A stretch of 64,000 nt of DNA from Isurus oxyrinchus (GCA_026770705.1 JANJGN010000012.1:38688001-38752000); one strand, 5' to 3'. Numbered from the stretch's first letter, positions 47,541-62,507 are shown. Program-made: numbers and translations. The notes: generated by a model not told the origin, from the sequence alone.

Positions 47541-47883
47541 AACTGCCAGTTATCTCAGAGGCAACAGCCAAAAGCTACTACTTACTTCTAATTTGGTGAA
47601 TAGGGCATATTTTGCTAATTGGCAAGACTTTCAGCCACTGATGCCATCAGATGGATCTCATGTTCCATTGGCTTGTTTAGTTGAGTCAAGTCCACACAGA
47701 TTCTAACTGAGCCATTAGGCTTTGGTACTGTGACCGTCCCAGAACACCCCTTTGTCGGAATGGTTACTGGAGAGATAAAAACAAAAAAACAAAAAAAAAA
47801 CTGCGGATGCTGGAAATCCAAAACAAAAACAGAATTACCTGGAAAAACTCAGCAGGTCTGGCAGCATCGGCGGAGAAGAAAAG

Positions 47884-47922
47884 AGTTGACGTTTCGAGTC
47901 CTCATGACCCTTCGACAGAACT
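47884..47922 (-). ncRNA. Minimal type-I hammerhead ribozyme motif (variant core CUGUCGA)
   Basis: AGUU-CUGUCGA-A-GGGUC-AUGAG-GACUC-GAAACGUC-AACU: stem I, stem II, palindromic ACGU stem III, GUC site. Confidence 0.8.
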
Positions 47923-48300
47923 TGATTTCGAGTCCAAGAAAGAGTTGAAATATAAGCTGGTTTAAGGTGTGTGTGTGGGGGGCGGAGAGATAGAGAGAGA
48001 GAGGTGGTTGTGTGGATAAACAAGCAGTGATAGAAGCAGTTCATCAAAAGATGTCAGCGACAATGGTACAATAGAACACATAGGTGTTAAAGTTAAAGTT
48101 GGTGATATTATCTAAACGAATGTGCTAATTAAGAATGGATGGTAGGGCACTCAAGTACAGCTCTAGTGGGGGTGGAGGGAGCATAAAAGATTTTAAAATA
48201 TTTAAAAATAATGGAAATAGGTGGGAAAAGAAAAATCTATATAATTTATTGGGGAAAAAAAAGGGGGAAACAGAAAGGGGGTGGGGATGGGGGAGGGAGC

Positions 48301-51059
48301 TCACGACCTAAAGTTGTTGAATTCAATATTCAGACCGGAAGGCTGTAAGGTGCCTAGTCGGAAGATGAGGTGTTGTTCCTCCAGTTTGCGTTGGGCTTCA
48401 CTGGAACAATGCAGCAAGCCAAGGACAGACATGTGGGCAAGAGAGCAGGGTGGAGTGTTAAAATGGCAAGCGACAGGGAGGTTTGGGTCATTCTTGCGGA
48501 CAGACCGCAGGTGTTCTGCAAAGCGGTTGCCCAGTTTACGTTTGGTCTCTCCAATGTAGAGGAGACCACATTGGGAGCAACGAATGCAGTAGACTAAGTT
48601 GCGGGAAATGCAAGTGAAATGCTGCTTCACTTGAAAGGAGTGTTTGGGCCCTTGGACGGTGAGGAGAGAGGAAGTGAAGGGGCAGGTGTTACATCTTTTG
48701 CGTGGGCATGGGGTGGTGCCATAGGAGGGGGTTGAGGAGTACGGGGTGATGGAGGAGTGGACCAGGGTGTCCCGGAGGGAGCGATCCCTATGGAATGCCG
48801 ATAAGGGGGGTGAAGGGAAGATGTGTTTGGTGGTGGCATCATGCTGGAGTTGGCGGAAATGGCGGAGCGTGATCCTTTGAATGCGGAGGCTGGTGGGGTG
48901 ATAAGTGAAGACAAGGGGGACCCTATCATGTTTCTGGGAGGGAGGAGAAGGCGTGAGGGCAGATGCGCGGGAGATGGGCCGGACACGGTTGAGGGCCCTG
49001 TCAACGACCGTGGGTGGAAAACCTCGGTTAAGGAAGAAGGAGGACATGTCAGAGGAACCGTTTTTGAAGGTAGCATCATCGGAACAGATGCGACGAAGGC
49101 GAAGGAACTGGGAGAATGGGATGGAGTCCTTACAGGAGGCGGGGTGTGAGGAGTTGTAGTCGAGGTAGCTGTGGGAGTCGTTGGGTTTGTAATGGATATT
49201 GGTGGACAGTCTATCACCAGAGATTGAGACAGAGAGGTCAAGGAAGGGAAGGGAAGTGTCAGAGATGGACCACGTAAAAATGATGGAGGGGTGGAGATTG
49301 GAAGCAAAATTAATAAATTTTTCCAAGTCCCGACGAGAGCATGAAGCGGCACCGAAGTAATCATCGATGTACCGGAGAAAAAGTTGTGGAAGGGGGCCGG
49401 AGTAGGACTGCAACAAGGAATGTTCCACATACCCCATAAAGAGACAGGCATAGCTGGGGCCCATGCGGGTACCCATAGCCACACCTTTTATTTGGAGGAA
49501 GTGAGAGGAGTTGAAGGAGAAATTGTTCAACGTGAGAACAAGTTCAGCCAGATGGAGGAGAGTAGTGGTGGATGGGGATTGTTCGGGCCTCTGTTCGAGG
49601 AAGAAGCTAAGGGCCCTCAGACCATCCTGGTGGGGGATGGAGGTGTAGAGGGATTGGACGTCCATGGTAAAGAGGAAGAGGTTGGGGCCAGGGAACTGGA
49701 AATTGTTGATGTGACGTAAGGTGTCAGAGGAATCACGGATGTAGGTGGGAAGGATCTGGACAAGGGGAGAGAGAAGGGAGTCAAGATAACGAGAAATGAG
49801 TTCTGTGGGGCAAGAGCAAGCTGAGACGATCGGTCTACCGGGGCAGTTCTGTTTGTGGATTTTGGGTAGGAGATAGAAGCGGGCCGTCCGAGGTTGGGCG
49901 ACTATCAGGTTGGAAGCTGTGGGAGGGAGATCCCCAGAGGAGATGAGGTCAGTGACAGTCCTGGAAACAATGGCTTGATGTTCAGTGGTGGGGTCATGGT
50001 CCAGGGAGAGGTAGGAGGAAGTGTCTGCGAGTTGACGCTCAGCCTCCGCGAGGTAGAGGTCAATGCGCCAGACAACAACAGCACCACCCTTGTCAGCGGG
50101 TTTGATGACAATGTCAGGGTTGGACCTGAGAGAATGGAGTGCAGTAAGTTCCGAGAGAGACAGGTTAGAATGGGTGAGAGGAGCAGAGAAATTGAGACGA
50201 CTAATGTCGCGCCGACAGTTCTCAATGAAAAGATCAAGAGAAGGTAAGAATCCAGAGGGAGGGGTCCAGGTGGAGGGAGAATATTGGAGATGGGTAACAG
50301 GATCCGTTGAACTGGGAGAGGACTCCTGCCCAAAGAAGTGAGTCCGGAGACGAAGACGGCGAAAGAAGAGTTCAGTATCATGCCGAGCCCGAAATTCATT
50401 GAGGTGAGGGCGTAAGGGTATGAAACTAAGTCCTTTGCTGAGCACTGAACGTTAAGCATCGGAGAGGGGAAGGTCAGGGGGTATAGTGAATACACGGCTG
50501 GGGTTGGGGTTGGAAGAAAGGGTGGGGACGGAGGGACAGGCAGGGGTGGAGGGTCCTAGATGGGTGTTGGTGTCGATGAGTTGTTGGAGCTTGTGTTCCT
50601 TAGCAGTTGAGAGAAAGAGAAAAAGTTTCTTGTTGAGGCGTCGGATGAGCTGAAGGATAAAATGAAACTGGGGGCACGCGCAGCTTTGAAAAAGGGTACG
50701 GCGGTGCTGCTGGAGGGAGAGGTCGAGTGTGTTCATATGGCGGCGCATGGCACTGAGTGTGGATTTCAGAATGTGACGGGAACAGCAGTCTGAGAAACGT
50801 TTTATGTCCCGGAGATACCGGTAATCCTGGGTGGGTTCGAAAGATGAGGGATGGAATTTCAGTTGAAATCCACGTGGGGTAAGTCGGAGACGGAGACAGT
50901 CACTGAGAAAGGAGATATGGCTGTGAAAACGGGTTTTAGTAAACACCTTGTCAAACACCAGGAGGGAAATGGAAAGCAAAGAAGGTGAACAAGGCAACAG
51001 AGAGATACGGAAATCTTGTCGCAGAGAGGAACAGAACTTCTTCAAGGAGGTAGGCATTT
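48301..51059 (-). pseudogene. PLE polyprotein (N-terminal domain, RT, Cys linker, GIY-YIG endonuclease) with one in-frame TAA at 50452-50454
   Basis: ORFs 50452-51081 and 48301-50445 are in the same frame (..LSDA*RSVLSKGL); motifs PADKGG, LPKIHK, GRPIVS, MDVQSLYTSIP, GVAMG, RYIDD, CPRKRCNTC, LVYCIRC..LYIGET..RFAEH. Confidence 0.93.
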
Positions 51060-51089
51060 CTTGAAGAGCAGTGGCAGTCAATTAAACAC

Positions 51090-52037
51090 AGAGATAAAAA
51101 CAAAAAAAACTGCGGATGCTGGAAATCCAAAACAAAAACAGAATTACCTGGAAAAACTCAGCAGGTCTGGCAGCATCGGCGGAGAAGAAAAGAGTTGACG
51201 TTTCGAGTCCTCATGACCCTTCGACAGAACTTGATTTCGAGTCCAAGAAAGAGTTGAAATATAAGCTGGTTTAAGGTGTGTGTGTGGGGGGCGGAGAGAT
51301 AGAGAGAGAGAGGTGGTTGTGTGGATAAACAAGCAGTGATAGAAGCAGATCATCAAAAGATGTCAGCGACAATGGTACAATAGAACACATAGGTGTTAAA
51401 GTTAAAGTTGGTGATATTATCTAAACGAATGTGCTAATTAAGAATGGATGGTAGGGCACTCAAGTACAGCTCTAGTGGGGGTGGAGGGAGCATAAAAGAT
51501 TTTAAAATATTTAAAAATAATGGAAATAGGTGGGAAAAGAAAAATCTATATAATTTATTGGGGAAAAAAAAAGGGGGAAACAGAAAGGGGGTGGGGATGG
51601 GGGAGGGAGCTCACGACCTAAAGTTGTTGAATTCAATATTCAGACCGGAAGGCTGTAAGGTGCCTAGTCGGAAGATGAGGTGTTGTTCCTCCAGTTTGCG
51701 TTGGGCTTCACTGGAACAATGCAGCAAGCCAAGGACAGACATGTGGGCAAGAGAGCAGGGTGGAGTGTTAAAATGGCAAGCGACAGGGAGGTTTGGGTCA
51801 TTCTTGCGGACAGACCGCAGGTGTTCTGCAAAGCGGTTGCCCAGTTTACGTTTGGTCTCTCCAATGTAGAGGAGACCACATTGGGAGCAACGAATGCAGT
51901 AGACTAAGTTGGGGGAAATGCAAGTGAAATGCTGCTTCACTTGAAAGGAGTGTTTGGGCCCTTGGACGGTGAGGAGAGAGGAAGTGAAGGGGCAGGTGTT
52001 ACATCTTTTGCGTGGGCATGGGGTGGTGCCATAGGAG
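51090..52037 (-). repeat. Upstream pLTR (5'-truncated tandem copy including the GIY-YIG coding end)
   Basis: Near-identical to 47771-48727; by eye 2 substitutions and 2 A-run length differences. Confidence 0.95.
51193..51231 (-). ncRNA. Minimal type-I hammerhead ribozyme motif (variant core)
   Basis: Identical to 47884-47922. Confidence 0.8.
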
Positions 52038-52088
52038 AGATAACCCCTGCTGTAACGTTTGCTTAATCTCGCTCTTGACTTTGTCTAA

Positions 52089-52689: not shown

Positions 52690-55300
52690 CACAGCCTTTG
52701 ATTAGACTGAATTAGTCCATCCTGGGCATCTCTGGCAGCTAACTGAGCAGCAATAGGTGGTTTTGCCACATCAGACTCCTTCTCCTCCCCCTGTTGTTCC
52801 TCCTCTTGCTCCTCCTCCTCTGAAGATGCAGAGCGCTCATTACTTTCCTCCTTCTGGAGGTCCAGTCCTCTCTGCAGTATAATGTTGCACAAAATGCTGG
52901 AGACGACAGCCACTCTCGAAACCCTGAATGGTCCAAACTATCATGCAACCCCAGGTCTGTCTGGGTACCTGAATCGCATCTTCAGCATTCTCATTGCTTG
53001 CTCAATTACAACTCTGATGTTCATGTGGATCCTGCTTTACCTTCCCTGGGTGTCAGTGCTAGGGCTCTTTACAGGGATCATTGGCCACAGCTTTACAGGG
53101 AGCTCTTGTTTTCACGAAGCCATCCATTGACTCTGCTTTGAGGTGTTAATATTGGTGGCAAACATGAATGACATAGGATTGGCGCATCATGACAGCTCCC
53201 TGGAAAATCTTGCACTGATATTCACGATGGTCTCTAGGTTGCAGACCAACTAAAATATGTGGAACAAGTGGAATCTGTTTTCTGCTGGCTGATCTAGGGG
53301 CTGCTTTGATTGCCATAGGTGTGTAATGTATGACTTCCTAAAGCTGTGGGAGTTAGCTCGAGTTGCAAATCCACACACCCTCTCGTTTCATTGCAAACCT
53401 CATTCATTGCAAACTGGATATAAATCTACCACAAGTATGCATGGAAGCAGATTGTGAGATTCTACAAATATCACCTGCAGATTCCTGGAATGAGCTAGAG
53501 GCAAAGAAACCAAGAGCTATGGTGCCACTGACAATGCTCACCAGGGCTACTTGGAAGGAGGTCTTGTTCCATCAAGCTGCAAATGTCAGTGATCACCTAA
53601 CAGGAAGAGTCGATTATTAAGGATGAGATTTCAGAATACTTGGAAGTGCATGGTAAAATAGAGCAAAGTCAGTATGGTTTCATCAAGGGGAGGTCACGCC
53701 TGACAAATCTGTTAGAATTCTTTGAGGAGGTAACGAGTAGGTTAGACAAAGGAGAGCCAATGGATGTTATCTACTTGGACTTCCAGAAGGCCTTTGACAA
53801 GGTGCCGCACAGGAGGCTGCTCAGTAAGATAAGAGTCCTTGGTGTTAGAGGCAAGGTACTAGCATGGATAGAAGATTGGCTGTCTGGCAGGAGGCAGAGA
53901 GTGGGGATAAGGGGGTCCTTCTCAGGATGGCGGCCGGTGACTAGTGGAGTTCCGCAGGGGTCAGTTTTGGAATCACAACTTTTCACTTTATATATACATT
54001 AATGATCTAGATGAAGGAACTGAGGGCATCCTGGCTAAGTTTGCAGATGATACAAAGATAGGTGGAGGGACAGATAGTATTGAGGAGGCAGGGAGGCTGC
54101 AGAAGGATTTGGACAGGCTAGGAGAATGGGCAAAGAAGTGGCAGATGGAATACAACGTGGGGAAGTGTGAGGTCATGCACTTTGGTAGGAAGAATAGAGG
54201 CAGAGACTATTTTCTAAATGGGGAGAGAATTCAGAAATCTGGAGTGCAAAGGGACTTGGGAGTCCTAGTCCAGGATTCTCTTAAGGTTGAGTTGGTAGTT
54301 ATGAAGGCAAATGCAATGTTGGCATTTATTTTGAGAGGACTAGAATATAAAAGCAGGGATGTGCTGCTGAGGTTTTATAAAGCTCTGGTCAGACCACATT
54401 TAGAATATTGTGAGCAATTTTGGGCCCCGTATCTCAGGAAGGATGTTCTGGCCCTGGAGAGCGTCCAGAGGAGGTTCACGAGAATGATCCCAGGAATGAA
54501 AGGCTTAACATATGAGGAACGTTTGAGGACTCTGGGTCTCTACTCGATGGAGTTTAGAAGGATGAGGGGGGATCTGATTGAAACTTACAGAATACTGAAA
54601 GGCCTGGATAGAGTGGACGTGGGGAAGATGTTTCCATTAGTAGGAGAGACTAGGACCCGAGGGCACAGCCTCAGAGTAAAGGGAAGACCTTTTAGAACAG
54701 AGATGAGGAGAAACTTCTTTAGCCAGAGAGTGGTGAATCTATGGAATTCATTGCCACAGAAGGCTGTGGAGGCCAGGTCATTGAGTGTATTTAAGACTGA
54801 GATAGATAGGTTCTTGATTGGTAAGGGGATCAAAGGTTACAGGGAGAAGACGGGAGAATGGGGTTGAGAAACTTATCAGCCATGATTGAATAGCAGAGCA
54901 GACTCGATGGGCCGAATGGCTCCTTTGTCTTATGGTCTTATGATCTTATGGAAAGCCTAAGCCTCCTGAGACCCCAGTGTAGTCATGACAGCTTATCCTC
55001 TGCCTGTACACTGTGTACTAGAGCTGTTGTCTCCTCTGAAGTTGATCTGTGTACCTATCCCCTCTGTCCTGTGGACCAACAAGTGGCTGCGGAGGATACT
55101 GCTCCATCTGTTGGTACTGCTGTTGCTCTTCTTCTTCCTTATCTGCCATCCAAAGTGGCTCCCATGCCGCTGTGAAGGCTAACAGATGGGAAGTGCAGAT
55201 CAAAAGCAAGAAACCCCAAGTCATTAAACATGATCGGCAAATTATTGCAAACCACATCCAAAGCAGTGAAAACACACTTTCAGAACTAGTCCTGTGAGAA
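52690..55300 (-). pseudogene. Second decayed Harbinger transposase, split by CR1
   Basis: N-part VYRQRIS..RRLRLS (~54950-55180); C-part RVVIEQAMRMLKMRFRY..SSILCNIILQRG + acidic tail ..AARDAQDGLIQ (52690-53100). Confidence 0.75.
53610..54950 (+). mobile_element. 5'-truncated CR1 (HER1-like) LINE, well preserved RT with one frameshift near 53990
   Basis: SQYGFIKGRS..LDFQKAFDKVPH..GVPQGSV / INDL..KFADDTK..LVRPHLEYC..RNFFSQRVVNLWNSLP; tail tcttatggtcttatgatcttatg. Confidence 0.95.
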
Positions 55301-61587: not shown

Positions 61588-61663
61588 ATACTGCGGATAC
61601 TGAAAATTTGAAATAAAAATAGAAGATATAGGAAATGTTCAGCAGGTCAGACAGTATCTATGG
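61588..61663 (-). mobile_element. Old PLE-pLTR tail remnant (resumes at 62516-62537)
   Basis: tactgcggatactgaaaatttgaaataaaaa..cagcaggtcagacagtatctatgg | agagaaaaacagagctaacg matches the reverse complement of the tail at 2965-3060. Confidence 0.7.
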
Positions 61664-61728
61664 CAAAATAAAAACAGAATTACCTGGAAAAACTCAGCAG
61701 GTCTGGCAGCATCGGCGGAGAAGAAAAG

Positions 61729-61767
61729 AGTTGACGTTTCGAGTCCTCATGACCCTTCGACAGAACT
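61729..61767 (-). ncRNA. Hammerhead motif, left arm
   Basis: Identical to 47884-47922. Confidence 0.75.
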
Positions 61768-61920
61768 TGATTTCGAGTCCAAGAAAGAGTTGAAATATAA
61801 GCTGGTTTAAGGTGTGTGTGTGGGGGGGGAAGGAGAGAGTCTCTCTCTCTCTCTCCTTCCCCCCCCACACACACACCTTAAACCAGCTTATATTTCAACT
61901 CTTTCTTGGACTCGAAATCA

Positions 61921-61959
61921 AGTTCTGTCGAAGGGTCATGAGGACTCGAAACGTCAACT
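61921..61959 (+). ncRNA. Hammerhead motif, right arm
   Basis: agttctgtcgaagggtcatgaggactcgaaacgtcaact. Confidence 0.75.
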
Positions 61960-62072
61960 CTTTTCTTCTCCGCCGATGCTGCCAGACCTGCTGAGTTTTT
62001 CCAGGTAATTCTGTTTTTATTTTGGATTTCCAGCATCCGCAGTTTTCTCTGTTTTCATATCAGTATCTATGG

Positions 62073-62507
62073 CAATGCTTCTCAAATGTTTTCCTAATGC
62101 GAACCCATTTTAATGCCTTAGACTTTGACGTGGGAGGGTTAGAGAGTTTTTGAATGTGGAGGGAGGGGGGAGAAGAGTTGTTGATGGTGGGGGATGGGGA
62201 TGGGGGTGGATGGTGGTGAGGTGAGTGGTTGACCAGGAAGGGGAGTTTAAAACCACTGGGTTTGCCTGACAAAAAAACAAAGAGCTACCTTTTTATAGGC
62301 GGTGGCTGTAGCAGCATTTCAGGCCTCAGGGAACAGGTGATTAAGCCATGCACCTGATAGAAAAGAATATGAACATTTAAAGGGACCTCGCAGCTGTCTA
62401 AACACAATCTGAGCTCCATGGCTGCTCATGCTGCCTCGGGGCTCATGAACACAAGTTCTCATCCCATGAGTCCAATGGGGGTCACGACCCAGAATTTAGA
62501 ACCCCTG
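62073..62507. mobile_element. hAT (Charlie-like) MITE, 8-bp TSD ATCTATGG
   Basis: ATCTATGG-caatgcttctcaaa...tttagaacccctg-ATCTATGG; subterminal gggtcacgaccc. Confidence 0.8.

Follow-up and report, generated by a model that had tools for sequence, protein, structure and literature searches.

Tandem hammerhead motifs in Penelope-like elements (PLEs), their cleavage as dimers and a circular template have already been published (PMC4209133; reviewed in PMC6765202). The metazoan PLE pseudo-LTR hammerheads of Cervera and de la Pena 2014 (PMC4209133) resemble the locus studied here in having two motifs about 3 kb apart around an ORF, a stem I of 4 bp, an unpaired letter after A9, a G10.1-C11.1 pair and a palindrome at 15.1-16.1. 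The available rows of their Fig. S3 all carry A6, but the search behind them demanded A6, and U6 is found here. Partial tandems with pseudo-LTRs are a known PLE layout (available parts of PMC8557442 and PMC3846280). The EN+ Neptune/Nematis PLEs share with our locus partial tandems, inverted 5' copies, an optional tail of 30-40 bp, the CX2-5CxxC linker and GIY-YIG (PMC8557442, in part), and the pLTR layout and TATA/Inr of EN+ PLEs are described in PMC3846280; the sharp accumulation of 5' ends at stem I that is reported below was not found for EN+ PLEs in the accessible text of either source. The role of the PLE hammerhead and the rebuilding of pseudo-LTRs are given as open questions in the accessible parts of PMC8557442 and PMC2377424.

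In the Poseidon PLE of the green anole, PAc (Frangieh et al. 2024, PMC11167929), two internal start sites downstream of the hammerhead make the tail, as is likely here, and uncut RNA is the main template, to which the route proposed below is likened; hammerhead mutants leave in vitro insertion unaffected and no RNA reads end at the cut. PAc belongs to the Poseidon clade and its motif lies over the start codon (PMC11167929), whereas the present element has its ATG 140 nt behind the cut, a Neptune/Nematis-type linker and an altered core. A natural change at position 6 that leaves the remaining core intact is also described for the A6C hammerhead of phage Bcep176 (available parts of PMC3088659 and PMC7151607), and a C6 minority occurs here too. 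The Bcep176 hammerhead occupies one phage locus, folds fully as a monomer and has been tested for activity, whereas this family has U6, a minimal motif, tens of thousands of copies and a predicted ribozyme. A6C lowers cleavage and is slow in Mg2+ (PMC3088659 and PMC7151607, in part), and activity is low in single mutants of the CUGA turn (PMC9901934, in part). By analogy with these two observations, U6 is likely damaging. The literature search found no measurement of A6U itself, no PLE core with fixed U6 and no 5'-end pile-up at stem I; Lunse et al. 2017, which reportedly deals with PLE hammerhead variants, may list position-6 variants and may cover such cases.

The window (the whole stretch of 64,000 nt that was analysed) gave 5 matches in a relaxed hammerhead-core scan of both strands, and 4 of these were the motif with U6, with core coordinates from 47918 to 47888, 51227 to 51197 and 61763 to 61733 on the minus strand and from 61925 to 61955 on the plus strand. 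The minus-strand motifs running from 47922 to 47884 and from 51231 to 51193 were spaced by exactly 3309 nt. The sequence-only reading had placed two identical motifs 3309 nt apart on the sense strand of the ORF, and the core scan together with the 39-nt identity confirmed it. Both motifs lie in one insertion (47779..52033, minus strand), a partial tandem of a PLE made up of a 5'-truncated copy, one full unit and a tail. Target-site duplications of 10 bp flank it at the element 3' end (47769..47778, 8 nt of which also match the tail) and at the element 5' end (52034..52043). The upstream direct repeat or pseudo-LTR (51096..52037, minus strand) contains the ORF 3' part, the 3' UTR, the hammerhead and the tail and is 99.5% like 47785-48727; over 944 nt the two direct repeats showed 2 mismatches and 2 small gaps. 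The motifs had been described as bracketing the unit; they are indeed identical, but what is repeated is the 944 nt and thus more than the motifs. Partial tandem, pseudo-LTRs, tail and short target-site duplication were all present and assign the element to the EN+ PLEs, and the insertion is a young partial-tandem copy.

A second insertion of the same family (61652..62075) is a head-to-head pair of element ends with motifs at 61729-61767 on the minus strand and 61921-61959 on the plus strand and a target-site duplication of 15 bp; one arm carries a short tail and the other a long tail. The two insertions differ from each other upstream and in the tail, so the four motif copies come from two source sequences, as had been proposed. 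Sequence 3' of the predicted cut (65-100 nt) was retained in all four copies, again as stated before. Elsewhere in the window, a frame of 308 aa at 53941-54867 on the plus strand had a weak RVT_1 match, which we take to be probably the 3' end of a CR1-type LINE.

The PLE ORF (48301..51057, minus strand) has 918 codons and encodes a reverse transcriptase, a CX4CX2C linker and, at its C terminus, a GIY-YIG endonuclease. Pfam search gave RVT_1 with an E value of 1e-6 and GIY-YIG with an E value of 3e-4, both just under the curated cut-offs. The protein had 2,525 homologues at E ≤1e-30, with the best named ones in Chiloscyllium, Rhincodon and Mobula, so a cartilaginous fish is the probable host. 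The linker was present in the window protein and in 5 of 6 aligned relatives and conforms to the CX2-5CxxC of Neptune/Nematis-type elements as given in the accessible part of PMC8557442. An in-frame stop was located at codon 202 (50452-50454), where 14 other copies examined read sense; the motifs flank the ORF, as had been claimed, but the ORF of this copy is not intact. The start codon ATG lies 140 nt behind the cut. Comparison of older with the youngest U6/C6 copies showed changes at 13 of 181 fourfold sites and at 1 of 352 second-codon sites, and the PLE ORF has been under purifying selection through the U6 period. In addition, a 5' UTR intron of ~90 nt could be defined by a splice-donor-like site within the tail and an acceptor-like one directly ahead of the ATG (~51058-51147, minus strand); the donor-like site of the tail was absent in the oldest subfamilies.

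The 3' motif (47884..47922, minus strand) has C3 at 47918, U6 at 47915 and its predicted cut after C17 at 47888, and the 5' motif (51193..51231, minus strand) has U6 at 51224 and its predicted cut after 51197. Position labels (A6, 10.1, 15.1, 17 and so on) follow the general hammerhead numbering. Over 39 nt, from one arm of stem I to the other, all four window motifs were identical. Stem I measures 4 bp and is followed by CUGUCGA and an unpaired A after A9; stem II, 5 bp long, is closed by G10.1-C11.1 and leads on to GAAACGUC. The earlier observations that stem III is the palindrome ACGU, located at 15.1-16.1, and that U stands in place of A6 held in four of four copies. The features of a minimal type-I PLE hammerhead (stems I and II, G10.1-C11.1, the letter after A9, palindromic stem III and NUH) were found with all pairs valid, while the CUGANGA core was absent from the U6 copies (all four in the window) and present in older subfamilies.

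A covariance-model search of Rfam returned 35 matches at E ≤10, none of them to a hammerhead family. Energy folding of the monomer was no better than that of shuffles (z 0.06), its minimum-energy fold having stem II without stems I and III, and the predicted dimer minimum differed from the hammerhead dimer, with only -3.1 kcal/mol for the ACGU duplex. Monomer and dimer folding were counted neither way, lack of support being expected for so small a motif. Since neither Rfam nor folding lends support, the case for a hammerhead is built on the anatomy of the motif and its homology to the canonical A6 subfamilies, and on this basis the assignment to the minimal type-I PLE hammerheads stood. The motif was absent from the viral contigs searched. 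In the predicted monomer fold (47884-47922, minus strand), core letters pair with the stem III strand and so lengthen stem II; in this inactive extended hairpin A6 would pair with U16.1, a pair that U6 breaks. A recurrent deletion of 6 nt between two AAC words, which removes stem III and the cleavage triplet, was also observed in independent copies (L100, L172, L175-L178, L180, L183, L185 and L187-L189).

Exact 31-nt patterns with the stem II of the window gave a total of 78,939 matches in the 4.98-Gb genome. U6C7 accounted for 60,876 matches and U6 with other letters at position 7 for 16,174, while 1,751 had C6 or G6 and 138 (0.17%) had A6. U6 therefore made up 77,050 of 78,939 matches (97.6%), and it is not the minority allele genome-wide that the sequence-only reading had thought might overturn its proposal. 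The A6 matches were sporadic, as none of 13 same-insertion partners had A6 (12 had U and 1 had C). A loose pattern for canonical A6 cores, however, matched 10,924 times in the genome against 110 for the reversed control. These belong to A6 subfamilies that are older, more diverged and earlier-branching, with stem II and tail nearly as in the U6 copies. Trees built from the element end (178 copies) and from the 3' ORF (27 copies) showed a ladder from A6 through U6 with the old stem II and U6U7 to U6C7, the deepest nodes being weakly supported. U6 with the ancestral stem II was common among copies selected by the tail only. Since the older subfamilies carry canonical A6, U6 is the derived state; it is fixed in the lineage and passed through several amplification waves.

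Of 22 distinct motifs located next to related PLE ORFs in metagenome contigs (best 80 of 458), 21 had A6. The exception was a distant PLE copy (L274, 2790-2830) with U6, a U3-A8 pair and a frameshifted ORF. In a second organism no difference was found at position 6 (47915) among the 40 differences listed out of 56, which makes U6 likely in a second species as well. A single C6 subfamily was also considered and rejected, as C6 copies were spread over the tree and 3 of 9 same-insertion partners shared C6. C6U7 was ~10 times commoner, relative to its U6 parent, than C6C7 (L158, L161, L163, L168 and L169; G000 C1), and it is probably a small C6 sub-lineage plus sporadic changes.

Constraint on the rest of the motif was assessed in 104 copies not selected by the core, A6 copies included. 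Within the core and stems II and III, shared variation was confined to positions 6, 7, 10.2 (A-U to G.U) and 17 (U or C) and two loop-II letters, plus CpG decay, and the CpGs within the motif were retained in source elements. The 5' arm of stem I was more mixed in this set, with many copies truncated there. The upstream spacer had changed far more than the motif, and the tail just downstream was about as conserved as the motif. The stems of the 104 copies showed no two-sided compensatory change. About five changes followed A6U, all of them tolerated by a hammerhead. Selection on the remaining motif is thus suggestive only, because the changes are few, the tail is conserved too and two-sided compensation is lacking.

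Genomic 5' ends were counted with patterns requiring three non-matching letters before the fixed start. Starts at the predicted cut gave 231 matches, compared to 82 and 184 for controls at -4 nt and +3 nt, and 7 of 30 inspected cut-site loci were merely small internal deletions; there was no excess of 5' ends at the predicted cut in the genome. If cut RNA were the common template, tail-primed copies would begin at the cut, and the proposal that double cleavage releases a unit RNA or circle was not upheld by these counts. With the start set at the first stem I letter, 5,229 matches were obtained, and 21 of 30 inspected loci truly begin there. Among 79 copies selected by the core pattern, 27 start 0-6 nt before C3 (95% CI 24-46%), 2 start 10-11 nt before it and 50 retain the upstream region. 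About one third of copies were hence made through an uncut 5' hammerhead, in keeping with the earlier conclusion that uncleaved or re-ligated RNA was copied; the fixed start itself, at the first letters of stem I, had been missed. The canonical A6 subfamilies showed 306 starts at stem I versus 34 at the cut, with unmatched denominators and a tail common to early U6 copies. As A6 subfamilies behave alike, the scarcity of ends at the cut does not tell U6 and A6 apart.

In 114 of 115 copies that fit a box-plus-core pattern, a TATA-like box preceded the A of stem I by 28-33 nt. In the window it lies at 51257..51263 (minus strand) in the upstream repeat, 32 nt before the A of stem I, where it is the likely promoter, and at 47948..47954 (minus strand) in the downstream repeat. 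The position of the stem I start ~30 nt behind this box was read through the general TATA/initiator spacing. The fixed start at stem I, and with it the first letters of the 5' motif, is likely the transcription start. Of 24 listed sequencing runs, 20 contained part of the window, none of them as raw RNA reads. The 3' ends of the 79 copies fell at two sites, ~62-66 nt (39 copies) and ~100 nt (31 copies) behind the cut, while 5 read on and 4 were shorter. These two sites match the two internal start sites of the anole PLE, in which internal starting of reverse transcription gives rise to the tail, and the long form of the tail in the window (~100 nt; 47779..47887, minus strand) likely holds such start sites (PMC11167929).

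Repeats within one insertion were far more alike than copies of the family. One insertion (L261, G000:C1:460000-469999) has at least 2.7 tandem units (a trimer), with 2 mismatches over 5,672 nt. Five tandem pairs showed 6 mismatches in 623 nt within the segment from stem I to the tail and 27 in 3,754 nt upstream of it, which fits a circle or a template jump alike. A circle explains near-identical tandem units equally well; circle and tandem look alike in DNA and in contigs. If protein-assisted cleavage were slow and ligation quick, a circle would leave DNA no different from that of the route proposed below. An array of 3433 nt (L265-L267, G000:C5:21080000-21110000) was rejected as a PLE multimer, being a genomic DNA duplication that holds short old PLE ends. 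A retrozyme was likewise rejected, as the unit is 3.3 kb long and coding and not small and non-coding.

Taken together, the sequence evidence tips slightly towards a lineage-fixed A6U that makes self-cleavage slow or negligible, in an element that transposes from uncut RNA. The TATA-like box of the upstream repeat would drive an RNA beginning at the first letters of stem I, and the PLE protein would bind the hammerhead-tail region and, as happens with the anole element, prime reverse transcription within the tail. When priming takes place in the 5' tail, synthesis would run through the uncut hammerhead to the RNA 5' end and give the short fixed-start and fold-back copies, while multi-unit transcripts, or a cDNA that on reaching the RNA 5' end jumps to the repeated hammerhead-tail segment, may account for longer-than-unit copies with matching repeats. 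Selection may still act on the remainder of the motif, either for a weak ribozyme or for a fold that the protein reads. A rather speculative version would have U6 as a tuned, protein-gated variant at the transcript 5' end, with the hammerhead-tail segment acting like the R region of retroviruses and the tandem rebuilt without a circle; reverse transcription would start in the tail, reach the cap and jump to the other copy, rebuilding the upstream promoter.

U6 could instead be a working variant, with (protein-assisted) dimer cleavage, circularisation of the 3309-nt RNA and reverse transcription around the circle to give tandems. All other core letters were kept through several U6 subfamilies and the repeats of one insertion are closely alike, as this would predict; the natural A6C still cleaves, well in Mn2+ (PMC7151607, in part), the anole PLE hammerhead cleaves only with protein (PMC11167929), and the distant metagenome copy combines U6 with U3-A8 covariation. 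That copy is, however, single and has a frameshifted ORF, 5' ends show no excess at the cut, about a third of copies were made through the uncut 5' hammerhead, and neither the dimer minimum nor the weak ACGU duplex favours a hammerhead dimer, which leaves a working U6 doubtful. It is somewhat harder to accept that the ribozyme is dead and its fold irrelevant, with the letters kept as core-promoter DNA (+1 to +35), as a linear protein-binding site or for too little time to change. The motif does lie exactly over the likely start region, the tail is about as conserved, the monomer folds no better than shuffles and Naiad PLEs thrive without canonical hammerheads (accessible part of PMC8557442). 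Against this, motif CpGs are kept in source elements and the changes after A6U (7, 17 still NUH, loop II and pair-keeping stem II) form a hammerhead pattern, suggestive only as they number about five. Equally improbable is that the fixed 5' start marks a 3' splice site or other processing site and not a transcription start. Under the general splice consensus, the pyrimidine run and AG before the core in older subfamilies would suit a 3' splice site. The D. virilis intron also ends at the 5' end of helix I (PMC4209133, in part), but truncated copies showed no shared upstream exon, AG was kept in 19 of 29 of them (a count inflated by matching against many references) and in the earliest-branching subfamily a better TATA box stands at this spacing.

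For the family, the lineage provides a natural experiment, with canonical A6 and derived U6 subfamilies in one genome. As the U6 subfamilies left at least 77,000 copies, full-speed cleavage was probably not required. Searches demanding CUGANGA would miss the entire young family. The fixed 5' start offers a precise and testable transcription start, and the reading of the hammerhead-tail segment as resembling an R region would, if true, answer how PLE pseudo-LTRs regenerate.
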